Positions 3,222 through 45,719 of a stretch of DNA of 49,064 bases are shown here, piece by piece. The position numbers were made by a program, and so were the translations under genes. Below the pieces are notes generated by a model. The model worked only from the letters and a program-made list of their open reading frames with translations. It was not told the origin of the DNA and made no database searches. The stretch lies in assembly GCA_022710345.1 (NCBI GenBank), contig JAKLHB010000001.1, positions 1-49,064 of the forward strand, read 5' to 3'. This stretch comes from Planctomycetota bacterium (lineage in GTDB: Bacteria > Planctomycetota > Uabimicrobiia > Uabimicrobiales > JABWCH01). Every line of letters begins with the position of its first letter. The first letter of the stretch is position 1.

Positions 3222-4295
3222 TTACCAAAGCAACCGCTCTTGTGTTTGATATAAATCCCAAATTTGGATCAATGCTGAAGAGACTAAACGCGAACCTATT
3301 GCGGCTTTTGGTAACCAGATAAAATTTGGGTCATGCACATCTTGCTCGCTCACACTCTCAGGAAGAATAACAGCAGGCTCGATTTGAATTTTATGGTTCG
3401 TGATGGTATGTCGAATAGATTTTAAGTGATATGAAATTGTTCCAGGAAAATGTGAAGCAACATTTTGTAGGGACCACGATGCAACATGCCGTGCTTCATT
3501 TGGAAAGTCCAAAAGTGATGGAAAAGCAATTTGCCCTTTGAGAAAGTAAAAATTTTCCCATTTCTGCAAAAGAATTTGCTGTTTTTGATTGGCAATCAGA
3601 TAAGCATGCCAAATCACAGGAATTTTTTCAAGCTTTATGGCCAATACAGGATATTGGCTTATTTTTTTTTGCTGGTATGCCTGGCAATTCGCTTGAATGG
3701 GGCAATTCAAACAGTTGGGCTTTTTAGGAAGGCAAATTTTTTGCCCCAATTCCATGATAGCTTCATTCAGATCACCAGGGGAGTATGGCATAGTTTCAAA
3801 TAAAGGATTCAATACATCATAGCACTGCTTGCTTAATACGTTGCTAGAAATTGGTGTATCCCAGCAAAAAAGACGGGCCAAAATTCGTTTTACATTGCCA
3901 TCTACCACAGGTTTTCTTTCTCCAAAGCAAATAGAAGATATGGCTGCTGCTGTATATGGACCAATGGTAGGAATAGTGAGCAAAAGGTCGTGGCTTGTGG
4001 GCAAACTGCCTTGATGATTTTGCATCAAGTAAATGGCAGCCTTTCGCAGATTGCGGGCGCGGCTATAATAGCCTAGGCCACGAAAAGCTTGCAAAACAGC
4101 TTCTTCTGAAGCAGAAGCTAATGTTTGAATATCAGGAAAATGAGAAAAAAAACGAGCTAAAGGATCCAATGCCGTTTGAATCCTGGTTTGTTGCAAGACA
4201 ACTTCTGAAATCCAAACACGATATGGATTGCGGCCAAGTCGAAAAAAATAAGGCTCACGTACAGTATCAAACCAGTTATACAATTCTTGGAGCAT
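3222..4295 (-). CDS. mutY: A/G-specific adenine DNA glycosylase
   Basis: PYRVWISEVVLQQTRI, GLGYYSRARNL (HhH-GPD), Cys cluster CLPKKPNCLNCPIQANC, plus a C-terminal NUDIX-like extension. Confidence 0.9.
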   Translation of the reverse strand: MLQELYNWFDTVREPYFFRLGRNPYRVWISEVVLQQTRIQTALDPLARFFSHFPDIQTLASASEEAVLQAFRGLGYYSRARNLRKAAIYLMQNHQGSLPTSHDLLLTIPTIGPYTAAAISSICFGERKPVVDGNVKRILARLFCWDTPISSNVLSKQCYDVLNPLFETMPYSPGDLNEAIMELGQKICLPKKPNCLNCPIQANCQAYQQKKISQYPVLAIKLEKIPVIWHAYLIANQKQQILLQKWENFYFLKGQIAFPSLLDFPNEARHVASWSLQNVASHFPGTISYHLKSIRHTITNHKIQIEPAVILPESVSEQDVHDPNFIWLPKAAIGSRLVSSALIQIWDLYQTQERLLW

Positions 4296-5423: not shown

Positions 5424-7477
5424 GATTCAATTTCTTCCTTTGCTTGGCGTTGGCCAATGAATTCTAAACATAGGCGACGATAGCGTTTGACATCGCTATT
5501 GGTAGCATCTAGTTGTGCCAGAGAATTGAATTTTTCTAAAGCAGCCTTGTATTGATTAGCTTGGAACAAAGAGACACCATGGCTAAATATTTCTTGAAAT
5601 TGTGATTCTCTCGTAAGTTCATCTTCGGCTAATTTTTTATAATGCAAAGCGTTTTTATGACTGCTCATGATACCTAGAACACGGTTGAAACATGCGATTG
5701 CTTCTTTCCATTTTCGGACTTTATAAAATTCTTGGCCTTTGTTGTAGAATAAACTAATCTGTTCTAGGCGCTGGTCATCTTCCATGCGCTCCTGCACCTG
5801 GCTCAAAAGTATTTTAGTATCGCCAAAGTCTTGCTCTTGGTCCATTCCTAACACTTTTTCAAAGCGGTCCATGGCTTCACGATATTCACATTTTTCATAA
5901 AGATCGCGGCCTTCGCGATAAAATTGTTCCGTAACCATCCGCCGTTTTTTATCTTTTTCCAAAGATTCACGAGCTTTTTTTAAATATAACTGAGCATCAG
6001 TATGCTCAGGTGCTACAGCCAGCACTTTTTCGAAGGCATCAATTGCATTTTTGTATGCTTTGTTTTTGATATGTAGCAGACCGTCTCGATAACACTGGGT
6101 CACCTGAAGAATCCGAATTTTGCGCTTGACAACTTTGCTTAATCTAAAAGCTACCTCATTTTTAGGATCAAAGTTTAGCGCTTCCTGCAGTAGCGTGTCT
6201 GCCTCATGATATTGTCCATCTTCTATCAATTTTTGGGCGTTTTCTACACTAATGCGAGCATTGTTGAGATTAATTTCCAACTCTGCCAAAATCTTGCTTA
6301 CAATATCTGGCATTTCATGGGCTAAGTCCATTTTTAGGCCGCGTATCCTACTAGAATCTGGATGATTACGCATCACTTCAATAATTTTTGTCACATACTT
6401 ACGTGCTTCATCATGCTGTTCTTCATCATAATAGGATAATGCTTGGGCAGTGAGATCCCGGATATTTCGAATGTCGTCTTCTTCTTGAAGCAAAAAAAAA
6501 GCTTGTTTTCTTTTTGTCAACGCTTCTTGTGCTTCTTGTGGCTTATATCCATAAATAGAAAGGACTTTGTTAAAATGATAGATTGCGATTTCCAGATTAC
6601 GTCGTTCTAATGCACGACGAGCTTTGGACATCAAAGAAGATAAGCTAACATCATTTGAAAAATCAATGCGGTCTGTGGCTTCATTCAAAGCAGCAATTAC
6701 ATCATTTAAATTTGGAAATCGGTCTTGTGGCTTTTTGGCAATCATGCGCAAGATAATTTTTTGCAACTCATTACTAATCTCTGTGTTGATTTTTTTAGGC
6801 GGCACGGGTGTTTCCATAAGGTGCATTTTATAGAGTTCTGCCAAAGTTTTACCTTGATAAGGGACTTGTCCGGTTACCATCTCATATAAAATGATGCCCA
6901 AAGTATATTGATCTGAGTAAGGAGAATAGTTTCCTTGAAATTGCTCTGGTGCCATATACTTAACCTTGCCAACACAGAGATTTTCTGGTGTAATTTTGGG
7001 CATTTGCCAATCGCGCAAGGCTCCAAGCCCCATGATTTTGATTGTCTCATCCTTGCAAATCTTAATATTTTCAGGGGCAAGTTTGCGATGCAAAATTTGG
7101 TGTTCATGTGCAAAAGCTAAGCCTTTAGCAATCTGTAAAAAATAATCAATTGCCTGGGAAATCCCCAATTTCCCTTGACTTTGAAGCAATTCTCGCAGAC
7201 TTGCGCCTGGAATATAGTCCATCACAAATCCAAAATAATTTACTTCATCAATGGATTCAAAGATGTTTAAGAAATTAGGATGATCGAGATTGGCCCACGA
7301 CTGGATCGCAAGCTGGACACGTTTACGAATAGTATCTTTGCTGGCCAATTGCGGATGAATGATCTTAATTGCGCGAGGTACTTTAAGCAATGTATGTTGC
7401 ACTTGATACACTGTACCTGTGCTAGTCACCGCTAATTCGGCTTCGATGAGGTATTCTTGAAGCGTCTGTCCAATCAT
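5420..7477 (-). CDS. Ser/Thr protein kinase fused to a long TPR-like repeat region
   Basis: N-terminal kinase domain (AIKIIHP, HRKLAPENI, MGLGALR, YMAPEQ) followed by about 400 aa of repeated Y/F-x-x-A-helical (TPR-like) units. Confidence 0.9.
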   Translation of the reverse strand: MIGQTLQEYLIEAELAVTSTGTVYQVQHTLLKVPRAIKIIHPQLASKDTIRKRVQLAIQSWANLDHPNFLNIFESIDEVNYFGFVMDYIPGASLRELLQSQGKLGISQAIDYFLQIAKGLAFAHEHQILHRKLAPENIKICKDETIKIMGLGALRDWQMPKITPENLCVGKVKYMAPEQFQGNYSPYSDQYTLGIILYEMVTGQVPYQGKTLAELYKMHLMETPVPPKKINTEISNELQKIILRMIAKKPQDRFPNLNDVIAALNEATDRIDFSNDVSLSSLMSKARRALERRNLEIAIYHFNKVLSIYGYKPQEAQEALTKRKQAFFLLQEEDDIRNIRDLTAQALSYYDEEQHDEARKYVTKIIEVMRNHPDSSRIRGLKMDLAHEMPDIVSKILAELEINLNNARISVENAQKLIEDGQYHEADTLLQEALNFDPKNEVAFRLSKVVKRKIRILQVTQCYRDGLLHIKNKAYKNAIDAFEKVLAVAPEHTDAQLYLKKARESLEKDKKRRMVTEQFYREGRDLYEKCEYREAMDRFEKVLGMDQEQDFGDTKILLSQVQERMEDDQRLEQISLFYNKGQEFYKVRKWKEAIACFNRVLGIMSSHKNALHYKKLAEDELTRESQFQEIFSHGVSLFQANQYKAALEKFNSLAQLDATNSDVKRYRRLCLEFIGQRQAKEEIES

Positions 7478-16363: not shown

Positions 16364-16590
16364 AACTTTCTGCCAGTGCTGTGACTCTTTCAGAGTGCCG
16401 CACTGCCTCCTAAACATCGAAGAAGTACTTCTTCAAAAGACATTGAAAAATAAGAAAACATCTTGTAATCATACTGCCATTTGGTATGTCTTAACTAGAC
16501 AAAAATACGAAAATTGTATTAGAATGTTTGAGATGAGGAATTATTGTACAAACCCAAGAAGAACTCTCGTATAAGATTGCACTGCAGCAA

Positions 16591-16831
16591 AGTTTTTTGC
16601 CGCGAAGCGGCTTGGGGATAAAGCCTGGGGTTTCTAACCCCAGGTTATGTCGAGTCTTATCGTGTCCTGATGGGACACAGGAAACCGTAGCATTCTATCA
16701 AAGAGAACTTTTATTTCCGAGCGAATTTTTATTTGATTGATACCAGAGGTTTCTGTAGTAACACGGAAAGCAAGTTTTACAATCCTTACAATAAAAATGC
16801 ATAATGCAAGTGCTTTATATGCTGAAACTTA
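16591..16831 (+). repeat. Structured repeat unit A (5'-diverged copy, long-tail subtype)
   Basis: Near-identical to 16999-17238. Hairpins gccgc-gaa-gcggc (16599-16611), cctgggg-tttctaa-ccccagg (16624-16644) and gtgtcc-tgatg-ggacac (16662-16678). Confidence 0.9.
16777..16805 (+). promoter_or_regulatory. sigma70-like promoter in the tail of repeat unit A (TTACAA-17-CATAAT)
   Basis: ttacaa at 16777-16782, 17-nt spacer, cataat at 16800-16805. The same arrangement recurs in unit B at 17184-17212. Confidence 0.35.
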
Positions 16832-16931
16832 CTGCGCTTCCCGATTGAATTCAATATAAAAATTAATATACTGTACCCAGGGTTGGTTTGCTCATTCTGG
16901 ATATTGTATTGAATCTGTTTGAGAAGCGCGG
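16832..16931. mobile_element. 100-bp MITE-like insertion with terminal inverted repeats and a TA duplication
   Basis: It interrupts the A|B junction, which is contiguous at the B|C junction (gaaactta|atatctc). Ends are ctgcgcttc ... gaagcgcgg (8/9 complementary), and ta flanks both sides (16830-16831 and 16932-16933). Confidence 0.6.
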
Positions 16932-16933
16932 TA

Positions 16934-17238
16934 ATATCTCTACTCGATGCCGTTGCATGGCCAGGACAAAAAAATTGTCATTTTGCCTTTTCTTTTGTGT
17001 TTTTTGCCGCGAAGCGGTTTGGGAATAAAGCCTGGGGTTTCTAACCCCAGGTTATGTCGACTCTTATCGTGTCCTGATGCGACACAGGAAACCGTAGCAT
17101 TCTATCAAAGAGAACTTTTATTTCCGAGCGAATTTTTATTTGATTGATACCAGAGGTTTCTGTAGTAACACAGAAAGCAAGTTTTACAATCCTTACAATA
17201 AAAATGCATAATGCAAGTGCTTTATATGCTGAAACTTA
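16934..17238 (+). repeat. Structured repeat unit B (full 305-bp unit, long-tail subtype)
   Basis: Starts atatctctactcgatgcc and ends gctgaaactta. Has the same three hairpins as unit A (17006-17017, 17031-17051, 17069-17085). Confidence 0.9.
17184..17212 (+). promoter_or_regulatory. sigma70-like promoter in the tail of repeat unit B (TTACAA-17-CATAAT), pointing into unit C and the island
   Basis: ttacaa at 17184-17189, 17-nt spacer, cataat at 17207-17212. Confidence 0.35.
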
Positions 17239-17447
17239 ATATCTCTACTCGATACCGTTGCATGGCCAAGACAAAAAAATTTGCCATTTTGCCTTTTCTT
17301 TTGTGTTTTTTGCCGCGAAGCGGTTTGGGAATAAAGCCTGGGGTTTCTAACCCCAGGTGTAGATGTGTCTTGCAGTGCCCTGAAGGGGCACCGGAAACTT
17401 CCTATAGCTCGAATCCTCATGTCTGCAGCGACAGAGAATCGCCCTAC
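17239..17447 (+). repeat. Structured repeat unit C (short-tail subtype), the left inverted repeat of the island
   Basis: 17245-17447 aligns to the reverse complement of 26615-26828. The first half is shared with A/B. The second half is a diverged version of the same hairpin architecture (gtgccc-tgaag-gggcac at 17375-17391). Confidence 0.9.
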
Positions 17448-17560
17448 AATATCTGGATACAGATTAAGGATTTTTTTAGTATATTCTAGCACAACAAGTT
17501 AGAATTTCCGAAAATCCACATAAGTGCAAGACTATTTTTTAATAGCAACCATGGAAAGCA

Positions 17561-20500
17561 TTATGAGAGCATGATTTTTTCGGAAACTTTTTTCAGAATT
17601 GTATTGATTTTCTCCAGTTGCTTGGGATTCGGAATGTTTCCAGCAAGCTCGATGCGTAGATGGAATTGGAGGCCACATCCGGCTGTTTCTTGGAGAAGCT
17701 CGCCCATCACTTCGGCGAGATTTTGTAATTCTTCAGGCTTGATAGCTACTTCTGCAATAGGAACGCCAGATTTTTTTGGCTTACCAGGTTGAAGTGGTAC
17801 TAACGAGTCTTCTTTTATAGGGATACGGAGTTTTATTTTGTTGGCTTCTGCCAGAGTGGTTCCAAACGTATGCATACCTGAATCGAGGGTGCATTCCAGA
17901 AGATGAGATTGGATCGCACCCTGGATGGCTTCTCGTACCGTAGGCCAGGGCAAAATTTTTCCACCCTTCTGGGATAAAGCGGAAAAGATGGCTACTGCCG
18001 TTGTTTCTTGTGCCTGCCATGCGCCAGGAAGCTTTTCTGGCATAATGTCATCCATTGGAATGGCCGGCGGTGGCGGTTGTAATCTTGCCGATTCCCAGAG
18101 AAGCCCATTGGGAATCTCTTCGCCCAGTATACTGGCTTCCTGGCAGGTAAGCCAAAGTTTCCCTTCTGCGACCGCTTTTTTCACTGCATTCTGAACTACA
18201 GCTTTGTCCGCTTGGGGAATGGTGACAGATTCTTCATAGCCTTGCTTGGGAACCTGGATAGTGACTCCGGAGAAGTATTGGCATAGATTTTCCAGAGCAA
18301 TCTCAGGATTTTGCCAGAGGCTAGGCAGTTTTCCTGGTGATAAAAAAGACGTGGGTATATCACTTAAGGTGGCGTGTTCGGGTAATACCACTTCCAACGC
18401 TGGATCTTGGAAAGAACTTTCGTCCGGTTCCTCATGCCAAAAGGTCTTTTTCGTGTGATCCGGACGGTTCAATTGAAGTACAAAGAAACCTTCCCTTGCC
18501 CCTTGTACAAGCGTATCCAAAATTTTTTTCGACCGCAACATCTTGGGAAGGTGAGGAAACTGGGCAAACGCATTTACCAGGTCTTTGACACGACGCGAGT
18601 GTTCTCCTTCACGCCAAAGGTCGTAAGGGCCTCCTGGTAGAAGAGCATCTGCGCTGATCTCACTATCCTGAATGCGCACCTCTTTGGTCTGTTTAATCAA
18701 GGAGAATAGCGGCTGATCTTGGATTACGAGCTTGATAGCCTGGATTTCATTCTTCTCGCCTACTGCGACCACAATCGAATAAGCCTGCCGAATCATGTCA
18801 GTAATTTTCTTGCGGGCCGATTCGAGATTGCTGTTGAGGAGCTCTTGCCGGATCGGGTCTAGCTCCTCTTTTTTAAACTGCAACCGCACTTCCTCCCAGC
18901 CCAGATATTCTCGAATGGTATTACGGCAGATATCCAGGCCGTCTTTGGAAGGAACCGCCAATACAATGCTGTTGCGAAAGACCCTGGGCCGATCCGAGGA
19001 GGTAGTTTCTTCGAGAAACCGTCTGGCCTCTGGGTTAGGCTTTCCTGGATCCGAGGCGGCACTCGGGCCAAGAATGGCAAAATGAAAATCGCCGTCATCT
19101 TCTATATCCTTCGGCTTCATCGGCAAGGTATGAACTTTTACTCCCAGTCCTATGGCCCCTTCTTTTAAGCTTTTGATTTTGGGGATTTCGACGATCAACC
19201 TGGATTCGATGACCTCCGGCACTATCCTTAGACAGGCATCGTGGTGCATCTGCTTGAGATTGGGCCTGGAACCTAGCCGCCATGATTTAGGAAGCTTAAG
19301 GCTTTCACCCGTTGCCAGCGCAGCCATGCTTTCGTCCAGGAACCAGGAAATCTGCGCCCAACGGATCAATCCTTTTTCTAGCTCAATCTTATCTGGATGA
19401 GTTGCACCCAAAAGTAGCAACAAATCCCGAGTGAGCGCTTTTTGGCTAATTGGCTGGGAATGCAAAAAGGTAGCTACTACCGCTTGTTCGATCTCCCGGT
19501 GAGACAAAGCGACCTCTTTCTGGATTTCTCTGGCTTTTGTCAGTTCCCCTTCTAAGATGCCTGCCCATGCCTGTTTTTTGCCTTCATACTCTTCCGTAGC
19601 CGCGACATTCGCCAATTCTTGTGCCGCTTCCGAAAGGTCTTTGAAGCCAGGCTTTCCTAAAAAGATGTTGGCACCAATCAGAGGAGAATCGTCCCATTTC
19701 TCCGCTTCCCGCAGAGCTAGAGCAAAGGTTCTGAGAACACCACGTGTGCGCTGGAAACCTTCCAGATTTGTCCATTTGGTATAAAAAATTTCGGTAAGGT
19801 CGGGATGGAAAGGATAGCTCAGGAAGAATCGTTCCTCCGCCTGTTTGCCTTCTTTGCGCGTCTGGTCGTCCAGTTCCCCAATGCCTTTTAAAGCTGCCAC
19901 CAGATGGCAGCGGAAATGGTCTTTGCACTGGATGCTTTCCGGGGTAAAAAAACGCCGACGCAGCACCTCGGCCACATCTTCCTTAACCACCGGCTGGATG
20001 CCTTCCTCACTTTCGCGGCGGAAGATGGAATAAATTTCTTGGGTTAGCTCTTTTCCCAATGTATCGCTTTTTCTTGGATCTGTTGCCAAGAGAGAGGCAA
20101 CCACAGCACAAGAGTCCACCTTGGTAGCCGCCTGGGTCAGGCACTGGAAAAAATTGAGCAACTTGCCACGCCAATTGGGATCCAAAGCCACCTTCTCTCG
20201 TGCATACATCAAAACCTCATCGCAAAGAATCAGAGTGCTGAGGTTTTCCTGCGCAGGCATGCTCAACAGGTCCAGAAGAAGATTTTCTGCCGGGGCACTT
20301 TCCCTTTCCTCCTCCTCTCCCCTGACATGAAGCAGTTTCAGGCCATTTTTACCTGCCAATTGAAATGCCAGAATACTCCACGGATTTTTGAGCCATTTCC
20401 GAGTTCCATCCATGCCCAATACTTCCATGCCTTTTTCCACATCCAGCTTATCAAAAGCCAGAACAGCGATTCGAGCTTGTGCTGGACTGATGCCAATATG

Positions 20501-20860
20501 CTGGCAGAACTCCTGCACGGCAGGCAGAGTGGGCAAATGCTTGGGATCATGGACAAGATGGTATAAGGTGATAAGCGCGTGCGTTTTGCCACCACCATAG
20601 GTAAGTTCCAGTTGATGCACTGCCTTGGCATTTTTCTTAGCCAATCGTAATACCACATCTTTGGCCAGTTCACGTAGATTATAGGTAGGATAGGTCAAAG
20701 AAAAAAACTCCGTAGGGTCTTCATATTGCGAACGCCGATTCTTCTTCATCGCCACATCGTATAAATCAGCAGCAAATAGGGAAAGCGAAAGCTCTCCCGA
20801 CCGGAGTTCCTCCCGAAGGTGGACTACTTCATGCCATGGTTTCCAGGAAAGTTTTGTCAT
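17561..20860 (-). CDS. DUF499-family ATPase (large P-loop protein of helicase-methylase-ATPase type defence cassettes)
   Basis: The N-terminus (KPWHEVVHLREEL...LFAADLYDV...FFSLTYPTYNLREL...LELTYGGGKTHALITLYHL) matches my memory of the DUF499 signature. 1099 aa. Confidence 0.8.
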   Translation of the reverse strand: MTKLSWKPWHEVVHLREELRSGELSLSLFAADLYDVAMKKNRRSQYEDPTEFFSLTYPTYNLRELAKDVVLRLAKKNAKAVHQLELTYGGGKTHALITLYHLVHDPKHLPTLPAVQEFCQHIGISPAQARIAVLAFDKLDVEKGMEVLGMDGTRKWLKNPWSILAFQLAGKNGLKLLHVRGEEEERESAPAENLLLDLLSMPAQENLSTLILCDEVLMYAREKVALDPNWRGKLLNFFQCLTQAATKVDSCAVVASLLATDPRKSDTLGKELTQEIYSIFRRESEEGIQPVVKEDVAEVLRRRFFTPESIQCKDHFRCHLVAALKGIGELDDQTRKEGKQAEERFFLSYPFHPDLTEIFYTKWTNLEGFQRTRGVLRTFALALREAEKWDDSPLIGANIFLGKPGFKDLSEAAQELANVAATEEYEGKKQAWAGILEGELTKAREIQKEVALSHREIEQAVVATFLHSQPISQKALTRDLLLLLGATHPDKIELEKGLIRWAQISWFLDESMAALATGESLKLPKSWRLGSRPNLKQMHHDACLRIVPEVIESRLIVEIPKIKSLKEGAIGLGVKVHTLPMKPKDIEDDGDFHFAILGPSAASDPGKPNPEARRFLEETTSSDRPRVFRNSIVLAVPSKDGLDICRNTIREYLGWEEVRLQFKKEELDPIRQELLNSNLESARKKITDMIRQAYSIVVAVGEKNEIQAIKLVIQDQPLFSLIKQTKEVRIQDSEISADALLPGGPYDLWREGEHSRRVKDLVNAFAQFPHLPKMLRSKKILDTLVQGAREGFFVLQLNRPDHTKKTFWHEEPDESSFQDPALEVVLPEHATLSDIPTSFLSPGKLPSLWQNPEIALENLCQYFSGVTIQVPKQGYEESVTIPQADKAVVQNAVKKAVAEGKLWLTCQEASILGEEIPNGLLWESARLQPPPPAIPMDDIMPEKLPGAWQAQETTAVAIFSALSQKGGKILPWPTVREAIQGAIQSHLLECTLDSGMHTFGTTLAEANKIKLRIPIKEDSLVPLQPGKPKKSGVPIAEVAIKPEELQNLAEVMGELLQETAGCGLQFHLRIELAGNIPNPKQLEKINTILKKVSEKIMLS

Positions 20861-21212
20861 ATATGGATTCTCCTATTATCTTTTCTACTTCCATCAATTC
20901 CTTTATAAGATAGGGCAAATCTTTTTCGATGATATTCCAAATAACATTCATATCAACATGAAAATGTCCATGGATTAAACGGTCTCTAGTTCCTATAATG
21001 CCTTTCCAAGGAATTCGAGTAAATTCTTTGGAAGTTTCTGGAGATATCTTTTTCGCCGCTTCGCCTATCATTTCCAGAAGTCTTAAAACAGCAAGAACCA
21101 GCACTTCTTCATTCTCAAATTCTTGTCTTGTTTTTCCATCAATAAATTTTATTACTTTTTGGCTTGCGTCTAACATATGGCGAATGCGAATTCTGTCTTC
21201 ATGATTGAACAT
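20829..21212 (-). CDS. hepT: HEPN-domain (DUF86) toxin of an MNT/HEPN pair
   Basis: R-x4-H motif in GTRDRLIHGH. About 127 aa. 14-nt overlap with the upstream MNT gene, and the 3' end overlaps the DUF499 start by 32 nt. Confidence 0.85.
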   Translation of the reverse strand: MFNHEDRIRIRHMLDASQKVIKFIDGKTRQEFENEEVLVLAVLRLLEMIGEAAKKISPETSKEFTRIPWKGIIGTRDRLIHGHFHVDMNVIWNIIEKDLPYLIKELMEVEKIIGESIYDKTFLETMA

Positions 21213-21498
21213 ATTCTACCTGGGCTTCTTTTATTACAGCATCACGAAAATATGGACTTAGAAAATCAACCGTATTCAAATCCACTTTTCTTCCGAGCAT
21301 AGAAGAAAGGCTATCTTGTAGCTCAAAAAAAGCAAAACCTGGAGTATGCCCAGATTCAAACTCTACCAATATGTCAATATCACTCTCTGGGCCAAAATCG
21401 TCCCTCAAAACCGAGCCAAATAAGGCAAACTTTTTAATATGATGGACTCTACAAAAATCACTGATTTCCTTTTTCGGAATAAGAATGTTTTTATTCAT
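21199..21498 (-). CDS. mntA: Minimal nucleotidyltransferase (MNT) antitoxin
   Basis: LFGSVLRDDFGPESDIDILVEF (GS-x9-D-x-D). AGGA RBS upstream of the ATG at 21498. The track start at 21534 has no RBS. Confidence 0.85.
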   Translation of the reverse strand: MNKNILIPKKEISDFCRVHHIKKFALFGSVLRDDFGPESDIDILVEFESGHTPGFAFFELQDSLSSMLGRKVDLNTVDFLSPYFRDAVIKEAQVEYVQS

Positions 21499-21561
21499 AA
21501 AACAGTTCCTGTAGTTTAGTATTTTCTGGATCATTAGGGAAGTTTTGTCATAGGGATGCTC

Positions 21562-21798
21562 CTAAAACCTTGTAATTTCTACATAATGGTGTTTTTGACG
21601 TGCCTCTTGCACCATATTTTCCAATCGGGCTGCTACGTCATCTGGAATCCATTCGTTTCCGCACATAGAGCATAAACTAGCAGGTACATCCCTGATTACC
21701 ACGAGACCCTCACCAAAGTCTGTTGTAAAAGTGGTTTTACCTTGTTTTTTTGTTCCACCACACAAGGGACATTGGTCAGGCAAAGTCGCAAGTTTCAT
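21562..21798 (-). CDS. YgiT-type (MqsA N-terminal-like) zinc-finger protein, 78 aa
   Basis: CPLCGG...(27 aa)...CSMCGNEW, a two-CxxC zinc ribbon. gggagaag RBS. No adjacent toxin-like partner. Confidence 0.7.
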   Translation of the reverse strand: MKLATLPDQCPLCGGTKKQGKTTFTTDFGEGLVVIRDVPASLCSMCGNEWIPDDVAARLENMVQEARQKHHYVEITRF

Positions 21799-21816
21799 AA
21801 CTTTCTTCTCCCATTG

Positions 21817-22570
21817 CTAATTTTCTGTCTTCTCAATCCAGGTATCTTGTTTATTCGTGTTCTCTCTCCCCTTTGCTACCAGATGGTTGCTGATGCTTTC
21901 GAGGAGGGATCTTTCTTTGGTGCCATTTTCGGAGAGTTCGATGAGTGCCTGGAGAAATCGGGGGAATATGGCGAGCCTACGCAGTCCTCGAGATTCGAGG
22001 TATTCGTCTACTTTGGCCACATCTCCTTCTTTCCAGAGGTGCATGATGCGATGGATCTGGTCAATCAAAGGAATGGGAAGGTTGTGAGCGGTGGAATAGC
22101 CCATGTTTTTTTGTTTGCGTTGGACCCAGGTTTTGAGCTTGAGTTGGGAGCCGGTGCCTTTGGAAATTGGTTCGTCTTCTTTCATTTCCTCTGCATCGTC
22201 TGCATCGTCTGCATCATCTTCGTCCTCTGTGGTGGAAGATTGCTTCCCCCCGGTGCGAGCCAGAATGTCGTACTGCTCTGTCAGGTCCCGATCCGACAAT
22301 CCACAAGACAGGGAATACAGGATGCACACACCGCTGGGAACCTCATCCATGCCAAAGTCGTGGCGGTGCAAAAGGTAGTATGAGTGCTGCTCGACAAGCG
22401 GCCAGCGGTCTGCGCGCCGGCCAAATATGCAAGGTGGAAATATGCCCATGCCGGACATTCTTCTCATGCACAGAATCCAAAGAAGCCTGCTTCAAGGGAA
22501 ACGCCACCTCGATCAGACGAGGCTGATCGTTGCTTGGTTTATCATTCATCGAAATTGATCCTTTCGGCAT
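21817..22570 (-). pseudogene. DUF1156-family DNA methylase remnant: N-terminal and C-terminal pieces only, in two frames
   Basis: ORF 22343-22570 encodes [45 protein letters not shown] (DUF1156 signature) and then stops. ORF 21817-22467, in another frame, carries a typical C-terminal helix region (LIDQIHRIMHLWKEGDV...FLQALIELS). No SAM-binding or catalytic motifs fit in the about 250 codons available. Confidence 0.7.
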
Positions 22571-22617: not shown

Positions 22618-22794
22618 TCACAACAGAATCGCCCTTTGAATCGTATCTACCTCTTGCGTTTCAAAATATGCCTCTCCACACTGGGTACATACCCAGGCAG
22701 GAATTTGATTCCAAACGATATGATACCCCTTTCGATCCAAATAAAATGGAGCCGTGCTTTTTTCCATAATGCCTTTGCAATAAATGCATTCCAT
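22618..22794 (-). CDS. YgiT-type zinc-finger protein, 58 aa (not in the ORF track)
   Basis: AGGAGG lies 7 nt upstream of the ATG at 22794. MECIYCKGIMEKSTAPFYLDRKGYHIVWNQIPAWVCTQCGEAYFETQEVDTIQRAILL has CxxC...CxxCGE. TGA at 22618-22620. Confidence 0.65.
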   Translation of the reverse strand: MECIYCKGIMEKSTAPFYLDRKGYHIVWNQIPAWVCTQCGEAYFETQEVDTIQRAILL

Positions 22795-22852: not shown

Positions 22853-25800
22853 TTAGTCCCCTTCCTCCATCTGCCATATTTCCTCTGCTGCTATCACCAC
22901 GCCGCCTCGGGGCTGTCCCAATAGTCTTCCAAATGGATCTTGGATACGCAAGAGCCTTGGGTGGGGTGTAGCGCAATCAAAGACTACATATAGCCAATAA
23001 CGGGAGCGCAGGTTGCAGGCTTTCACCCATTCATTGGTGGAAAGCTCGATATTACCTATATTGGCACGGCCTTTGACCTCGATGGCGCGCTCTTCTCCGT
23101 CCGGACGCTTCGAAACGAGATCAAAACCGGGCCAATGGACAAGCCCGCAAGCCTTTGCTTTCTCTGGCGTGGAAACGTCGCTGACTTGCGCGCCTTTGGA
23201 TTGTTCATGCGCAATGGCGATTTGCATGGCTATTTTTTCCATGTTTTCGTCGTATCTTTGCCCATCGTTTTCGTTATATGCTTGCTGATCTTGCAAGCCT
23301 TGTGGAGGAACTACCAGGGCAAATGCTAGAAAGGTTACCTTCTGCGATACGATCAATTCTGGCTCTCGGGCCAATCGTCGCAGGCTGTTTTCCAATTGGT
23401 GTCCCAAAAGTTTCTGGCGTTCTTTAATTCGCAAGAGTTCTGCCTTGGCTTCTGGATATCCAGCTCGCTCTTTCTCCGTCAACCTGGCTCGAATCATTGC
23501 CAATTCCGCAGATTGGAAATCATAACCGCGTTTGATAAAATTCTGCCTTTCCTCCAAAGCGTCTAGAAGAACCTGTCGTCGCGCCTTAGCAATGGGGAAT
23601 GCGATCTGCTGCAGGATATAAGCCTTGACTCGATCTAAGGAATTTGTAGCCAGGCTGGCAAACGAAATCTCGGCTTCCGGAACCCGCTGTGTGCCTTGCA
23701 GCAGCAATAGAGCTTCGACCGGGCATTCTTCTAAAGTTCCATTCTTATTCTGCCGAATCCCTACCAGCCTGTATTCGAGCACTTCCTTACGAGCGAAGGA
23801 CGGGATCTCAGAATCCGCCTCCCGCTCCACAGTAAAGACTGCCAGATAAAAAAGGTACGCTTCTGGAGCATGGGGGTTGATGAACACGCCGCCTTGTAGT
23901 GCCTCTGGACGAAAGAACGAGCAGACAAAGCTACGAAACTTATCAAAGAAAGGATCCCCAGGACGCAAGAAAATCGCGGAGTTGGGATCAGAAGGCTTGC
24001 AAACAGTAAAATGCTCCTGCTGCGAAGGCAAATAAGCATCCAAAGCATAGAGAAGAAATTCCAGCTTAGGAGGAAACGAGGTAAAGCAAAAATGATCCAT
24101 GCTTCCCTTCATGCCGATTCCCAATAACTCAGCCGCCTTTTCCATGAACCAGTAAACATAGCCAGGCAAAAGATGGTAATATTCTTCTGGATCCATAGCC
24201 CCGCTGGCGGTATTTTTATGATTTTCCTCTGCGGTGAGATGATTGTCCTCTACATCGCAAATTTCCCGCAGCCTTTTTACCGAGACCAGTTCCTCTATTT
24301 TTTTCTCGATCTCTGTGGTTCCTTCCTCGGTAATGGTCTGTTCCATATATTCCTTAAGGGAGATTCCTTCCAACAGCCTGCCGATGCAATCGAATACCTT
24401 GTCCGATCCAAGTTCTTTGCGAATCGTTTCCAGCTTCTTTAAAAGAGTGGCCAGTACCCTGCCTTCCCGGGTGTTTTTGGCGACCAGATTGAGGATCACG
24501 ACCGGATCGTGTTTCTGTCCGTAGCGGTGGATTCGGCCCATCCTTTGCTCTAAGCGGGCTGGATTCCAAGGGATATCGTAGTTGATCATAAGCCAGCAAA
24601 ATTGGAGGTTGATTCCTTCTCCTGCCGCATCGGTTCCTATGAGATAGGTTGCGCCTCCTTCCGCTGCACTTTTCTGGAAAAACTTTACCTGCTCTTCCCG
24701 CTCTTCATACGGCATTCCACCATGAACCTGGGCAATTTTTTCCGTAAACCCAAGCCCTTCCATTCGTCGCACAAGGAAATGAAGCGTATCCCGATGCTCG
24801 GTAAAGATGATGATCTTTTCCTCGCGGTATTGCGGGTCTTGGAGAATCTCTTGCAGTTTGCTGAATTTCGATTCCTCCCCTTTCTGGTATACCCGTTCTG
24901 CCAAGTCTAGAACATTGGAAAGCTGCGATTTTTCTACCTCCAACTCAGCCAATGAAGTGGCTACTATGCCTTCGAGCAGATTGGTTTCGGCAATCTCATT
25001 TTCTTCCTGGCCCTCTTCTGCCTCTTCTTCCTCTGCGGTCTTTTGTTCCCAGACATCCGGATAATTATCGAGCTTACGTTGCAAAGCCATAAGCCCGGCG
25101 GAAGTAATTTTCCCTGAACGGATGGCTTCTATCCAATCTTCTAGCTTCTGAAGGCGGTTCTTTAAAGACTGCACAAGAGCGTAGGTGGAACTCGCCAGAC
25201 GACGCTGAAAAATCATCATGGCAAACCGCACCGCAGAGCGATTTAAAATACGTGCACGGTTGTAGAATGTCCTGAGATAGTCGCTGGTCTTGTCATAAAG
25301 CTCCTGTTCGCTGTCTTCGCCTGAGGTCAATTGATACGTCAATGTATCAGAGATGCGCATGGGATAAAGGGGAGTTCCATCCGCATTCACCATCTCCTCT
25401 TTCGTGCGTCTTAGAAAATGGTGATATCGAAAAGGTTTTCGTCCTTGAGTAGATCCAGGGCATAGATGACCCGAGTAATCACGAAATGATTCCCAGGTAG
25501 GAAAAATCTCGGGAACCAGGAGCTTCCAAAGCGCGTAATAGGGAAAATCTTTCCCCATGTGCGGAGTGGCTGTCAGCAGCAACAAATGCGTTGCATGCCA
25601 GGCAAGCCGCCATCTGGGATCACGGTCTGCAATGCCAGCAAGTGCTTCGGCAAGATGGTATCGTTCGGTCTTGCGCACTCGTAAATCTAGCTCACGATCT
25701 GCGGACAGTTTGTGCGCTTCGTCGAAAATTACCAAATCATAAGGAACCACCGTTTCCTCTTGCAAACGGCAGAACATAGTATCTCCAGCCAAAGTATCCA

Positions 25801-26512
25801 GACTGACAATGACAAAGTCGCTCTCTGGCCCGATAAAAGGATTAGCGGAACGAGCTTCGATGCCCCGGACAATATGAAATCTCAGACCAAATAAGGTTCT
25901 TAGCTCTCGTTCCCAGTTGCCAAGAAGCCCTGCTGGCGGGATAATCAAGACTCTTTTGATCGCTCTTCTGGCGATCATTTCCCGGATATATAAGCCGGAC
26001 ATGATGGTTTTGCCAGCACCGGCATCATCGGCCAGAAGGAAACGCAGGCAAGGCTCTGGTAGCAAATATTCATAGACGGCGACCCGTTGATGAGGCAAAG
26101 GGGCGATCAAAGAAGTCTCTGTGGCAAAAACCGGATTAAACAGATGCCCCAAACCAAGCCTTTCTCCTTCGGCCACCAGTCTTACCATTTCAGGATTCGC
26201 AGAAAAATCTGGGCTTACAGGCTCCGAAGGCTCTTCGGGCCTCTCTATTCCATAAACAGGGCTGGCCTCTTTGGCAATCGTAAGTTCCTGCGCACCATGT
26301 GAACTATACGCAGTCTCGGTATGCAAAATTCGCTGCCAGGCTACCATAGTAGGCTTGGCTTTGCCATTCTCCCAACGATTTATGGTGGCAAACGACACGC
26401 CCAAAATTTCTGCCAAATGGCTCTGCGTCAATCCATGCCTGGCTCGCAATCTTTTGATACGAATTGGATAATCAGACGGAACCTGGTATTTCAACGAACT
26501 ATCCTCGCTCAA
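22853..26512 (-). CDS. SNF2/RapA-like superfamily-2 helicase with N-terminal XRE-type HTH and C-terminal PD-(D/E)xK-like (DUF3883-like) domain
   Basis: HGLTQSHLAEILGVSFATINRWENG (HTH); LLADDAGAGKTI (motif I), FDEAHKL (II), LLLTATP (III), GTDAAGEGINLQ (V), WNPARLEQRMGRIHRYGQ (VI). C-terminus: DLVSKRPDGEERAIEVKG...YWLYVV. Only TTG starts are available (26512 or 26494). Confidence 0.9.
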   Translation of the reverse strand: MSEDSSLKYQVPSDYPIRIKRLRARHGLTQSHLAEILGVSFATINRWENGKAKPTMVAWQRILHTETAYSSHGAQELTIAKEASPVYGIERPEEPSEPVSPDFSANPEMVRLVAEGERLGLGHLFNPVFATETSLIAPLPHQRVAVYEYLLPEPCLRFLLADDAGAGKTIMSGLYIREMIARRAIKRVLIIPPAGLLGNWERELRTLFGLRFHIVRGIEARSANPFIGPESDFVIVSLDTLAGDTMFCRLQEETVVPYDLVIFDEAHKLSADRELDLRVRKTERYHLAEALAGIADRDPRWRLAWHATHLLLLTATPHMGKDFPYYALWKLLVPEIFPTWESFRDYSGHLCPGSTQGRKPFRYHHFLRRTKEEMVNADGTPLYPMRISDTLTYQLTSGEDSEQELYDKTSDYLRTFYNRARILNRSAVRFAMMIFQRRLASSTYALVQSLKNRLQKLEDWIEAIRSGKITSAGLMALQRKLDNYPDVWEQKTAEEEEAEEGQEENEIAETNLLEGIVATSLAELEVEKSQLSNVLDLAERVYQKGEESKFSKLQEILQDPQYREEKIIIFTEHRDTLHFLVRRMEGLGFTEKIAQVHGGMPYEEREEQVKFFQKSAAEGGATYLIGTDAAGEGINLQFCWLMINYDIPWNPARLEQRMGRIHRYGQKHDPVVILNLVAKNTREGRVLATLLKKLETIRKELGSDKVFDCIGRLLEGISLKEYMEQTITEEGTTEIEKKIEELVSVKRLREICDVEDNHLTAEENHKNTASGAMDPEEYYHLLPGYVYWFMEKAAELLGIGMKGSMDHFCFTSFPPKLEFLLYALDAYLPSQQEHFTVCKPSDPNSAIFLRPGDPFFDKFRSFVCSFFRPEALQGGVFINPHAPEAYLFYLAVFTVEREADSEIPSFARKEVLEYRLVGIRQNKNGTLEECPVEALLLLQGTQRVPEAEISFASLATNSLDRVKAYILQQIAFPIAKARRQVLLDALEERQNFIKRGYDFQSAELAMIRARLTEKERAGYPEAKAELLRIKERQKLLGHQLENSLRRLAREPELIVSQKVTFLAFALVVPPQGLQDQQAYNENDGQRYDENMEKIAMQIAIAHEQSKGAQVSDVSTPEKAKACGLVHWPGFDLVSKRPDGEERAIEVKGRANIGNIELSTNEWVKACNLRSRYWLYVVFDCATPHPRLLRIQDPFGRLLGQPRGGVVIAAEEIWQMEEGD

Positions 26513-26614
26513 AATAGTCTTCTGTTTGGGAATAGTAATACTGCCATTTCTTGCCGATTATGGACTAGATTGGGAAGCAAAAATTTCCTAGTTCATAGCA
26601 TTCCAAAAGGTTAT

Positions 26615-26828
26615 GTACGGCGATTCTCTGTCGCTACAGACATGAGGATTCGAGCTATAGGAAGTTTCCGGTGCCCCTTCAGGGCACTGCAAGACACATC
26701 TACACGTGGGGTTAGAAACCGGTTAGAAACCCCAGGCTTTATCCCCAAGCCGCTTCGCGGCAAAAAACACAAAAGAAAAGGCAAAATGGCAAATTTTTTT
26801 GTCTTGGCCATGCAACGGCATCGAGTAG
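26615..26828 (-). repeat. Structured repeat unit D, the right inverted repeat of the island and the 5' leader region of the helicase operon
   Basis: Its reverse complement matches 17245-17447, with roughly seven substitutions by hand count plus an 11-bp tandem duplication (ggttagaaacc x2, 26710-26731). Confidence 0.9.
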
Positions 26829-43127: not shown

Positions 43128-43424
43128 TGTCTCTCCTTTCTTGATTTATGGAACGTGAAAAGTGGATTTGGTTGTTTTAGAGAATATATACCATACATTA
43201 TGGCAAAATCAACAAAATTTTGACAGGAATCTTGATATGCTCAAAAGGATGCCTAAAAATATCTGAGCATAATATAACATTTATTTTTTTTAGTCTTTAT
43301 TCACCATATAGTTAGAATTTTACATAAAATTTTGTTGTAATTTATTGGGAGCCGGATTAGAATTTTAGCAAATTTTTTGAGCAAAAATTTGCTTAAAATG
43401 TTTAGAATATTGCAAAGGATTTTT

Positions 43425-44768
43425 ATGGAAAATATCCAAGGAAAAAATATATCCCCTGGAACAAATAGTGAACCTGTTGCAGTAGAAGAACATACTGATG
43501 GCATGCAACTTGCTTTAAGCAATTTGCTTCAACCCAATGCTTCTCCAGATGATATACCTCAACTGAAAGCTGCAAAAAAATTTGGAGTTTTATTTATTCT
43601 TCTGAAAGAATTGTCTAAATCAAACTTAACAAATTTTTGGGTAAAAATTGCAATTCTCCTATTATTTTCTCAAGAAACAAATAAAACAGCCTGGACATCC
43701 CAGGAATTAGACCAAGACTTACATTGGCTGCAAAAAGAAGCGCGAAGTAGAATTATATCCCAATTAGTCAAAACCAATTGGCTTATTTTTCAAGATAGCA
43801 CATACCAGATGTCTGCTTTAGGAAAAAGTCTTTTGACTATGTTAGTTGGTCTAATGGATCGAGAAAATACCCAAGATTCGTTAGATACAAGTATCTCTTC
43901 ACTTACCTTGGCCGAAATTTCCCAAAGTGACCCGACAAATACATTGCGCATGTTCTTAAACGAACTCACCAGAATTGATCAGGAAATTCAGAGCACATTG
44001 GAGAGTAAATCCGAGCATCATCTGAGAAAAGCCAGCAGCAGGATTCGTAACCAATTTAGCGTTGCGATTAAATCCAGAGAGCATCTCGAAAATCTCCCAA
44101 CGAATGATTTTAATACATATCGCTTGAAACAAGAAGTGCACGAAAGACTTTCGGCATTTCACGCGCGGCTCTCACAGATTCAACGAGCACAAAATGATAT
44201 GATTGCACGCAAAATCATTTTAGCCGATCAATCCTTGACTCAACACGATATTGCAGAATTTTTGGTCAATGCAGATATGAAAGATTTGGTGAGACTAGGG
44301 AAAAAGGCCATCAGTTATCCGGTGAATGTACTAGATTTTGTGCCGCAGCTTATGGTCTATGAAACAGAATGGTATCTTGAAAAAGAGCGGAGTAAAGATG
44401 AGAGACGCGGTTGGACTGAAATGGAATTGGCCAACGAAAGTCAAGATCGCCTTGTCACATATAGTCGCTTCCTCCAGTTCACAGGAGAGGTGAATCATGC
44501 GTTGAGCCGATCTTCAGAACTCATTATTGAACAATTTATTCCATACGAAAATTGGACAACTTCAGCGTTTCGATTTTGCATGCTTTCAGTTTTGGAAAGC
44601 GGAGAAGTACCTGCAAATTTGGTGGCAGACGAAGCTGTAGCGTGCCCTAAACTCAAAGTTGCAGAACCAGACGGAGTATCTACTGCAGTATTAAATGACG
44701 ATATCACAGGCGTAAAAGAAATCACACGCGGCATTGTGACTGCTGTCCATGTTGAGGGAAAAAAATAA
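43425..44768 (+). CDS. Kleisin-like subunit candidate (MksF/JetA-like) of an SMC-type complex
   Basis: Call rests on position (first of three coupled genes before an SMC-like ATPase), size of about 447 aa, and a winged-helix-like segment (TSQELDQDLHWLQKEARSRIISQLVKTNWLI). The start is uncertain (TTG 43377 / ATG 43398 / ATG 43425 with an aaagga RBS). Confidence 0.5.
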   Translation: MENIQGKNISPGTNSEPVAVEEHTDGMQLALSNLLQPNASPDDIPQLKAAKKFGVLFILLKELSKSNLTNFWVKIAILLLFSQETNKTAWTSQELDQDLHWLQKEARSRIISQLVKTNWLIFQDSTYQMSALGKSLLTMLVGLMDRENTQDSLDTSISSLTLAEISQSDPTNTLRMFLNELTRIDQEIQSTLESKSEHHLRKASSRIRNQFSVAIKSREHLENLPTNDFNTYRLKQEVHERLSAFHARLSQIQRAQNDMIARKIILADQSLTQHDIAEFLVNADMKDLVRLGKKAISYPVNVLDFVPQLMVYETEWYLEKERSKDERRGWTEMELANESQDRLVTYSRFLQFTGEVNHALSRSSELIIEQFIPYENWTTSAFRFCMLSVLESGEVPANLVADEAVACPKLKVAEPDGVSTAVLNDDITGVKEITRGIVTAVHVEGKK

Positions 44769-45550
44769 TGGATACATTAGAAAAAGAAGCTAGTTTAATT
44801 TGTGCACGATTGCTCAGGCGAGGATACATCAAAAAAAATGAGATTCCTCAGCTCGAGCTCAATGAGCGATTGCGCCGTGCAGTGCAAGAACGTTTTCAGC
44901 AAACCGGTGTTCAGTTGGTCTCTAATTCATCCTCATTATATTATGCTGTCCGCTTCTTGCCTGAAGTCCAAGAATCATTTGAAACAACCGATAGTTTTGG
45001 CCTCAAAGCCAATGAAATCGCCATGCTCGTAGTTTTGTGGTGTAAATTGATTTTGCCAAAACGCTTGAGTTTGGGAAATGCAAGCGCTACTCCTACAATG
45101 CCCAAAGAAGCAACCGTGAAGCCCAATCCAGTAGAACAACCAAGCAATGGAAATGGCAAAGATGAAGAAGACGATTTGCCAGGCGCAAATAAGTACTTTG
45201 TCAAAGTCGAAGAACTATTTGCTGAATTTAAGTCTCAGTTTGCTTCGCGAAATTTCTTTAGCACAACGCTGAGCCGTTTGAGCAATCTCAAATTCATCCG
45301 TATTCGCGATGAAATCATCAGTGAAGGAATTTTGCTGGATCTTTTGATTGACGGCAATCAGATGGCCATGGAAATCAAGCGATCTGCCTTAGCATATAAA
45401 ATTGCTGGACTTGGAGAAGACGAAGAACTAGATGAGGAAGGCGAGACAGAAATTTTGGACGAAGAACCAGCAAATATCGAAGTTGGAACCACAGAGAGTA
45501 CAGATACCAGAAAACCAGTTGACAACAGCATCAGCACAGGAAAAGCGTAA
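44768..45550 (+). CDS. KITE-like subunit candidate (MksE/JetB-like) with an acidic C-terminus
   Basis: The TAATG overlap with the upstream gene suggests translational coupling. 260 aa. Acidic tail GEDEELDEEGETEILDEE. Family assignment is by context only. Confidence 0.45.
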   Translation: MDTLEKEASLICARLLRRGYIKKNEIPQLELNERLRRAVQERFQQTGVQLVSNSSSLYYAVRFLPEVQESFETTDSFGLKANEIAMLVVLWCKLILPKRLSLGNASATPTMPKEATVKPNPVEQPSNGNGKDEEDDLPGANKYFVKVEELFAEFKSQFASRNFFSTTLSRLSNLKFIRIRDEIISEGILLDLLIDGNQMAMEIKRSALAYKIAGLGEDEELDEEGETEILDEEPANIEVGTTESTDTRKPVDNSISTGKA

Positions 45551-45675
45551 AGTGTCCGATACCGCTTTGCTACTGATTAGCCTTTTTGGGGAAACTCCCA
45601 AAATTCGCTATCTTGAACTTTTCCAATCTTTTGTACCTCTGCAAGCCGCGTTCTATCAAATCAATCAGCGATCTT

Positions 45676-45701
45676 GAGCGAAGCTCAGCTTCGCTCTTTT
45701 T
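45676..45701 (+). terminator. Terminator-like hairpin 19 nt upstream of the SMC-like gene start
   Basis: gagcgaagc-tca-gcttcgctc followed by ttttt. Confidence 0.45.
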
Positions 45702-45719
45702 ATTCAATAAGGGAAATCT

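Follow-up and report, generated by a model that had tools for sequence, protein, structure and literature searches.

Hma systems are composed of three genes, encoding the helicase-nuclease HmaA, the DUF1156 methylase HmaB and the DUF499 ATPase HmaC (PADLOC, Payne et al. 2021; Liu et al. 2024, PMC11232893), and have been reclassified as a Type-1 DUF499-centred BREX-related (BR) system by Rakesh & Krishnan 2026 (PMC12839542). The HmaA protein of Halomonas is able, with neither HmaB nor HmaC present, to protect E. coli against T4, and a survey of hmaA neighbourhoods showed that hmaB is missing from 14.7% of them (PMC11232893). A relative of Hma, MANTIS (Gao_RL), is a Type-2 BR system (Shaw et al. 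2026, bioRxiv 10.64898/2026.09.23.753747), in which knockout of the methylase gene mtsC causes loss of restriction and no toxicity, a full-length MtsC without catalytic activity is tolerated only when the nuclease is mutated as well, and a swap of the methylase TRD retargets the nuclease (10.64898/2026.09.23.753747).

Using PADLOC and Pfam to assign the family, we identify the locus present in the window (the whole stretch of DNA that was analyzed, 49,064 nt) as an Hma system (hmaA-hmaB-hmaC), i.e., a Type-1 DUF499-centred BREX-related system, in that it shares with described Hma systems the three genes, their order and their strand, an HmaA with Snf2 and NOV_C domains, and an HmaC with a DUF499 domain. 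The three genes are colinear and all on the minus strand, and the same order is present in every related locus that is long enough to contain them. It differs from the described systems in that hmaA encodes an N-terminal XRE-type HTH, and in that hmaB lacks positions 55-895 of the HmaB profile and is out of frame. The locus is a degenerate member of the Hma family, with two of the three defining genes intact and the third a pseudogene. With MANTIS it shares a DUF499 AAA+ ATPase, a helicase-nuclease effector, and a family methylase of the alpha group of adenine methylases (FAGGG and DPPY motifs, central TRD, acidic flexible CTD); MANTIS differs in having a fourth gene, MtsB (DUF3870), which is absent here, and a PLD nuclease effector, whereas the locus in the window is of Type-1, with a PD-(D/E)XK nuclease fused to the Snf2 helicase.

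Our analysis confirmed that both partners of the methylase are uninterrupted, as the original prediction had stated. The hmaA gene (22853..26512, minus strand) encodes 1219 aa, matches PADLOC HmaA (E=4.5e-161) over profile positions 70-1131 of 1176, and contains the Pfam domains HTH_3, SNF2-rel_dom, Helicase_C and NOV_C, i.e., an N-terminal XRE-type HTH, a Swi2/Snf2 helicase and a C-terminal PD-(D/E)XK nuclease. In columns that are near-invariant among 33 orthologues, it keeps the helicase motifs GAGKT (165-169), DEAH (264-267) and QRMGR (656-660) and the nuclease residues D1131, E1145-x-K1147 and E1161, so that the nuclease-like C-terminus that had been noticed in this protein retains its catalytic residues; these residues match the D/E/K/E set that is essential in the Halomonas protein. 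Of 324 near-invariant columns, HmaA departs from the consensus at 26, more than any other of the 34 sequences compared, and it is also the most isolated of them (nearest neighbour at 58% identity, against a median of 82%). Given this isolation, and given that an intact orthologue (L073) departs at 22 columns, these deviations do not show relaxed selection on HmaA. The hmaC gene (17561..20860, minus strand) encodes a 1099-aa ORC/Cdc6-type AAA+ ATPase, matched by PADLOC HmaC (E=1.5e-69) and Pfam DUF499, which aligns end to end with 80 relatives at 51-75% identity and keeps its Walker A (GGGKT, 89-93) and Walker B (D214-E215) motifs.

The three genes lie on an island bracketed by an inverted repeat of ~205 nt, the left copy of which (17245..17448) is 97% complementary to the right copy (26614..26828). 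The GC content of the hma genes (0.49-0.51) is above that of the flanks (0.40-0.415), with that of a MntA/HepT gene pair inserted between hmaB and hmaC being 0.35. As the hma genes exceed their surroundings in GC, the island is foreign, i.e., horizontally acquired, and has not yet drifted to the composition of its host.

The internal deletion in hmaB

The region between hmaA and the inserted genes upstream of hmaC contains two overlapping minus-strand open reading frames, 22570..22343 (75 aa) and 22467..21817 (216 aa), which are in different frames, the second being +1 relative to the first. The 75-aa product carries the DUF1156 signature that had been recognized by eye, as demonstrated by a Pfam DUF1156 match (E=3e-14) that covers only positions 1-42 of the 73 in the model, and by a PADLOC HmaB match limited to positions 9-55 of 967. 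Using tblastn, residues 14-69 of this product align to the start of hmaB in related loci, with the native start of the gene probably being the ATG at 22549. The 216-aa product had no Pfam or PADLOC matches, and in the same tblastn searches its residues 29-207 matched the C-terminal ~180 aa of full-length HmaB from ~70 loci (44-59% identity, E down to 1e-64), while its first 28 residues are the N-terminal piece read out of frame, a chance-open extension. In every relative, the matches to the N- and C-terminal pieces are separated by about 2.3-2.6 kb of gene.

In order to map the endpoints, we used an HmaB profile of 1076 positions, built from 43 intact relatives. A search of the six-frame translation of the 49-kb window matched only profile positions 4-56 (22531..22373; 103-108 bits) and 892-1072 (22392..21832; 241-246 bits). 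The two matches share the nucleotides ...GCAGCACTCATACTACC..., which are read as CRAALI in one frame and as (S)YYLL in the other, and because the matches overlap only on these shared nucleotides, the junction is pinned to 22384-22378, with ...GCA GCA CTC A on one side and TA CTA C... on the other. Independent support came from the closest DNA relative, a Brocadiia-class MAG (L112; 69% nucleotide identity over 513 nt, and the best relative in protein identity, at 60-65%), where homology at both the nucleotide and tblastx levels starts at window position 22383-22380, with none upstream. The N-terminal remnant thus delimited (22379..22570, profile 4-54) is extended by out-of-frame codons up to the stop at 22343, and the C-terminal remnant (21817..22380, profile 896-1072) is in the +1 frame.

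By comparison with the profile, the lesion in hmaB is a single, out-of-frame internal deletion of ~840 profile positions (55-895), or about 2.4-2.5 kb, by which the N-terminal ~54 codons were fused, out of frame, to the ~180 codons at the C-terminal end. Both the ancestral sequence and the precise length of the deletion are estimated from the profile, and the offset between the frames implies a deleted length of the form 3n+2. A near-identical intact allele, from which breakpoints and microhomology could be read, was sought and not found, the best being L112 at 69% nucleotide identity. A rearrangement, instead of a deletion, was rejected, as no further piece of the gene was detected anywhere in the window when its six frames were searched with the HmaB profile. 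The original prediction had described a frameshifted stub; the stub is real, with 251 codons of space for hmaB against the about 1,000-1,070 profile-covered codons of intact relatives, in line with the expectation that full-length methylases are far longer, but the lesion is one deletion and not a frameshift accompanied by shrinkage. Its proposal that the acidic stretch forms the joint between the two frames does not hold. The acidic run EDEDDADDADDAEEMKEDE (22171..22227, minus strand), which is predicted to be disordered, aligns in the profile to the acidic linker found in all intact HmaB relatives and is the native linker of the HmaB C-terminal domain, with the change of frame occurring about 150 nt upstream of it.

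Examination of what was lost showed that motif I (DPFAGGG, profile 137-143), a Cys-rich insert that corresponds to the TRD (profile 336-412) and motif IV (DPPY, profile 639-642) are all located inside the deleted interval, in agreement with the original prediction, where no SAM-binding or catalytic motifs could be seen. It is exactly this part of the protein in which intact relatives have similarity to MethyltransfD12 and N6_N4_Mtase. There were no HmaB-profile matches to the motif I or motif IV region elsewhere in the window, and neither methylase domains nor HmaB-like sequence beyond the remnant were found in these 49 kb. At the N-terminal side, the DUF1156 helical domain is incomplete (Pfam 1-42/73 here, 1-53/55 in intact relatives), and this truncation at position 42 of 73 means that the endpoint of the deletion is not a domain boundary. 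At the C-terminal side, the helical/HTH-like domain with its acidic linker is still present (profile 892-1072). These results demonstrate that hmaB is a pseudogene, and that production of a methylase from this locus is impossible.

We also analyzed the C-terminal remnant as a protein. It is free of stop codons over its 187 codons, and its C-terminal sub-profile score of 245 bits falls among those of 26 independent intact genes (243-293 bits). An AlphaFold model built with a 46-sequence alignment predicts a confident helical bundle at query residues 109-189 (pLDDT about 76-95), with low pLDDT for the first ~50 residues and the acidic linker; the low-confidence start of the model is as expected of a fragment torn from a larger domain. 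PDB sequence searches with the C-terminal piece gave no match, and Foldseek against PDB returned nothing with E<1.

hmaB in other Hma loci

Our survey covered 80 genome loci, gathered by a scan with HmaC (51-75% identity), 30 metagenome loci and 7 exact-protein contexts. All 73 of the other loci that reach the 5′ end of hmaB have the hmaB profile covered end to end, and a large internal hmaB deletion is absent from every one of them; 6 of the 73 are split by frameshifts only, several of these in long-read MAGs, where the split is a possible sequencing error. A conserved short hmaB variant can be rejected, since the form is absent among the >100 loci surveyed, and the short two-piece protein with intact catalytic residues that the original prediction had considered as a counter-case was seen in 0 of the 73 loci, with no catalytic residues being present here either.

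A search with the C-terminal piece against 5.8 billion proteins returned almost only proteins of 176-333 aa, and we followed up contexts of these short proteins, each of which turned out to be an artefact or an eroded locus and not a natural short form. One was a fragment at a contig end (L113), and two were frameshifted genes (L112 and L116). Others, i.e., L114/L115, L117/L118 and probably P0097, are 5′-truncated, with gene calls that begin at a conserved Met at profile position 805. In L114/L115, hmaB is truncated at profile position 726 and hmaC is also cut, to 415 aa. In L117/L118, the truncation is at position 792, beside a fragment of a Y2 transposase (Y2_Tnp), and hmaA is absent. In the P0097 locus, known from gene calls and not from DNA, all that is left of hmaB is a C-terminal remnant (a 273-aa call, starting at ~profile 805) located 93 nt after a split helicase. 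These eroded loci are like the locus in the window in that hmaB is a C-terminal remnant next to hmaC. They are different in that their lesions are 5′ truncations (at 726, 792 and about 805) accompanied by further loss, with hmaC truncated or hmaA absent or split, whereas the window contains an internal deletion, and keeps the first 54 codons of hmaB and both partner genes. Erosion of hmaB is recurrent, but the form present in the window is a one-off lesion and not a family.

Consequences of the methylase loss and alternative readings

The observations are most probably explained by a single internal hmaB deletion in an Hma locus on an acquired island, i.e., by a recent pseudogene with intact partner genes, where restriction and modification were lost together. 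A clean remnant, intact partner genes and unameliorated GC point to a recent event, in that the score of the C-terminal piece is in the intact range, neither hmaA nor hmaC is shortened or lacks its motifs, and the composition is that of foreign DNA. Together with the stop-free remnant, these same features make fresh inactivation the best of the three readings first offered, the others being a system that works without self-methylation and one with modification supplied in trans. The deletion may date from during or soon after the acquisition of the island. A stop-free remnant of 187 codons would, however, also be expected under continued selection on the C-terminal domain.

An intact nuclease gene next to a lost methylase raises the expectation of autoimmunity, and MANTIS suggests how such a lesion could be tolerated. 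If the MANTIS results can be extended to Hma, the methylase of the family would carry the sole sequence-recognition module that directs the helicase-nuclease, and loss of the whole of HmaB would turn off modification and targeted restriction at once, with no autoimmunity and no immediate selection against intact hmaA and hmaC. Since in MANTIS targeting is lost along with the whole methylase, without toxicity, most of the expected autoimmunity paradox disappears, and since the TRD and the catalytic core were here removed together, i.e., the kind of lesion that is tolerated, hmaA and hmaC need not vanish at once. By this analogy, we infer that the restriction-modification-like mode of the locus is off, and that its loss was harmless. 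In Type III and Type ISP restriction-modification systems, and in BREX, the methylase is required for target recognition in restriction. These systems are different in protein families and composition, but the logic may be the same, in that loss of the whole Mod or methylase would disable restriction, and hence would be tolerated. The restriction-off mechanism is borrowed from a Type-2 relative and not from an Hma system, and in the one Hma system tested HmaA alone defended, so that the HmaA encoded here may retain some stand-alone activity.

With recent loss of hmaB as the preferred reading, the locus is probably a recent case of ordinary gene decay in a known system, and not a new kind of system. 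It is also a natural experiment, a wild genome where a Type-1 BR methylase is gone and the nuclease gene is intact, which agrees with the MANTIS knockout made in the laboratory. For annotation it serves as a warning, in that a locus with HmaA, HmaC and a DUF1156 match may be scored as a complete Hma system, when methylation from the locus is impossible.

The alternative that survives best, although we regard it as improbable, is that the locus is a working, methylase-free derivative where HmaA, perhaps together with HmaC, is a modification-independent helicase-nuclease, with the C-terminal piece, translated from an ATG at 22467, maybe acting as an adaptor. The protection of E. coli from T4 by HmaA alone and the 14.7% of hmaA loci without hmaB (PMC11232893) are consistent with this, as are hmaA and hmaC genes that are intact with their motifs, a C-terminal remnant that is stop-free and scores within the intact range, and the confident helical bundle at residues 109-189. 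However, the remnant begins with ~50 low-pLDDT residues that come from a larger domain now broken, no ribosome-binding site is evident ahead of 22467, and MANTIS restriction needs all of its components. That other eroded loci contain C-terminal remnants reflects ascertainment, the C-terminal piece having been the query, and decay in those loci extends to other genes, with a truncated hmaC in L114 and no hmaA in L117. A more specific form of this proposal, that the HmaB C-terminal domain continues to be produced, alone or with the 54-residue N-terminal peptide, and serves as an adaptor that keeps HmaC and HmaA working without self-methylation, we consider very unlikely; if true, it would represent a natural step from restriction-modification-like to modification-free defence.

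We also considered that the deletion is an assembly artefact or a minority haplotype, and that the true dominant genome has an intact hmaB. The source is metagenomic, and a third contig (L095), with only 2.3x coverage, breaks inside the remnant at window position 22093 and is uninformative on the junction. Against this, a separately assembled JGI metagenome contig of 32 kb (Ga0116241_10002172), which may stem from the same community, or even from the same reads, as the window, contains the same junction; over 23.3 kb it aligns to the window without gaps at 99.99% identity, the only two mismatches being in a repeat upstream of hmaA. No repeat that would collapse in assembly was found within the hmaB remnant, and an out-of-frame junction is typical of a real deletion. 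Together, these findings make an artefact very unlikely.

Provision of modification and targeting in trans, from a second hmaB or a BR-type methylase elsewhere in the genome, likewise has a very low probability. More than one Hma locus per genome or bin is possible, as the related bin GCA_013359215.1 holds two different ones (L059 and L112), but the 49-kb window contains no HmaB-like sequence or other methylase domain, and a paralogue would have to interact with this particular HmaA and HmaC. A natural two-piece or recoded (programmed frameshift) DUF1156 protein, for which the overlapping frames with good family similarity on each side could be taken as a sign, has next to no likelihood, as the catalytic and AdoMet motifs are gone, the Pfam domain is interrupted in its middle, recoding would require a +1 shift where there is no slippery sequence, and none of the >100 other loci has the same form.

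Inserted genes and other features of the island

Inserted genes are reported in 66.5% of Hma loci (PMC11232893), and the presence here of unrelated small cassettes between the hma genes (YgiT-type and MntA/HepT) is shared with described Hma systems and fits the reported insertion hotspot. A search of the window with Rfam gave no RNA family matches, and the counts of promoters and terminators in the window equal the shuffled expectation. Between hmaA and hmaB lies a YgiT/MqsA-like zinc-ribbon gene (22618..22794, minus strand; 58 aa) with two CxxC pairs and a weak, sub-cutoff Pfam match to MqsA_antitoxin; in relatives such as L013, hmaA directly adjoins hmaB, with no zinc-ribbon gene between them. 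Downstream of the hmaB remnant, a second YgiT-type zinc-ribbon gene (21562..21798, minus strand; 78 aa) is 83% identical to a 93-aa orthologue in L112, where it follows a DUF4258 toxin gene that has no counterpart here, and the gene in the window is probably an orphan antitoxin. Homologues of this gene are located between hmaB and hmaC in L009, L035 and L041. When assessed for an MqsA/YgiT-type assignment, the matches were weak, sub-cutoff Pfam matches to the zinc-ribbon part, with no HTH. The genes immediately upstream of hmaC are confirmed as a HepT/MntA pair, with a nucleotidyltransferase gene and a HEPN gene that are adjacent and overlapping: the mntA-like gene, encoding the antitoxin of the pair (21199..21534, minus strand; Pfam NTP_transf_2, E=7e-13; PADLOC PDC-S09), is followed by the hepT-like gene for a HEPN RNase toxin (20829..21212, minus strand; Pfam HepT-like, E=1e-22), which overlaps the start of hmaC by 32 nt.

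The hmaB 5′ end as a possible insertion hotspot in related loci

Two related Hma loci, which belong to two unrelated phyla, carry a direct repeat (~115-120 nt) of the 5′ end of the methylase gene hmaB, with 84% identity to the resident gene start in L018 (69-194 vs 3622-3783) and 94% identity in L079 (3737-3859 vs 5902-6066). In both loci the repeat is followed by an inserted defence cassette and then by an intact hmaB, the cassette being made up of Abi_C, DarT and Macro in L018, and of an AAA_21 ATPase and DUF4276 (PARIS-like) in L079. Both repeats stop at the same point, right after ...HIWPARR, i.e., position 44 of the HmaB profile. This breakpoint, common to L018 and L079, points to a specific insertion hotspot within the conserved hmaB start, with insertion regenerating the gene. 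The endpoint of the hmaB deletion in the window lies 10 codons beyond this breakpoint. Weaker cases of an hmaB 5′-end repeat are present at L040 5316-5378 and L043 2248-2343.

Two other Hma loci are further along in decay. In L114 (3937-7342), hmaB is 5′-truncated at profile position 726 and followed by a Fic gene, and the ATPase gene hmaC is shortened to 415 aa. In L117 (9625-15538), a locus lacking the helicase gene hmaA, hmaB is truncated at profile position 792 and adjoins a Y2_Tnp fragment; hmaC is intact, with a DUF1016/YhcG nuclease gene ahead of it.

Small genes between hmaB and hmaC

A single MAG of the class Brocadiia, GCA_013359215.1, contains two different Hma loci or haplotypes, L059 and L112, and the gene arrangement in the window resembles a mosaic of both. 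L112, the closest relative, has the order hmaB - DUF4258 - YgiT - hmaC, where the DUF4258 toxin gene precedes a gene for a YgiT-type zinc-ribbon protein that is 83% identical to the 78-aa protein of the window. Comparison of window positions 21798-21817 with L112 1608-1967 identified no counterpart of the ~315-nt DUF4258 gene in the window, the zinc-ribbon gene there starting 19 nt past the hmaB stop; this absence is probably a second small loss, which would leave an orphan antitoxin. A MntA/HepT toxin-antitoxin pair (20829-21534) is also inserted between hmaB and hmaC, with a GC content of 0.35 vs 0.49 in the adjoining hma genes, and the first 32 nt of hmaC lie within hepT. In L059, whose HmaC is the closest relative (75% identity), mntA is likewise directly upstream of hmaC.

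Repeats bracketing the hma island

The entire hmaA-hmaC island is enclosed by two inverted copies of a ~205-nt repeat, located at 17245-17448 (left) and 26614-26828 (right), with 97% complementarity and a single 11-nt indel. Immediately outside hmaC, at 16561-17238, are further tandem copies, in which a 240-nt unit is present twice, 407 nt apart. The hairpin CCTGGGGTTAGAAACCCCAGG has three exact matches (16624, 17031 and 17337), one in each tandem copy and one in the left bracket copy. An Rfam search of the window returned no match. Taken with a jump in GC (0.49 vs 0.40), these repeats suggest a mobile or recombination-delimited island.

A SMC-like cluster and the HmaA N-terminus

Three plus-strand genes at 43377-48506, ending 560 nt before the end of the window, encode proteins of 463 aa and 260 aa, for which the family search gave no match, and a 928-aa SMC/MukB-like ATPase (PADLOC JetC, E=2e-34; Pfam SMC_N and AAA_15), and are possibly a MksFEB/Wadjet-like condensin module.

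The N-terminal end of HmaA differs from its description in the literature, where it is a TUDOR domain, in that residues 19-62 form an XRE-type HTH (26512..26320; Pfam HTH_3, E=1e-10). This HTH was likewise recorded in the helicases of two related loci, L116 and the P0097 locus.
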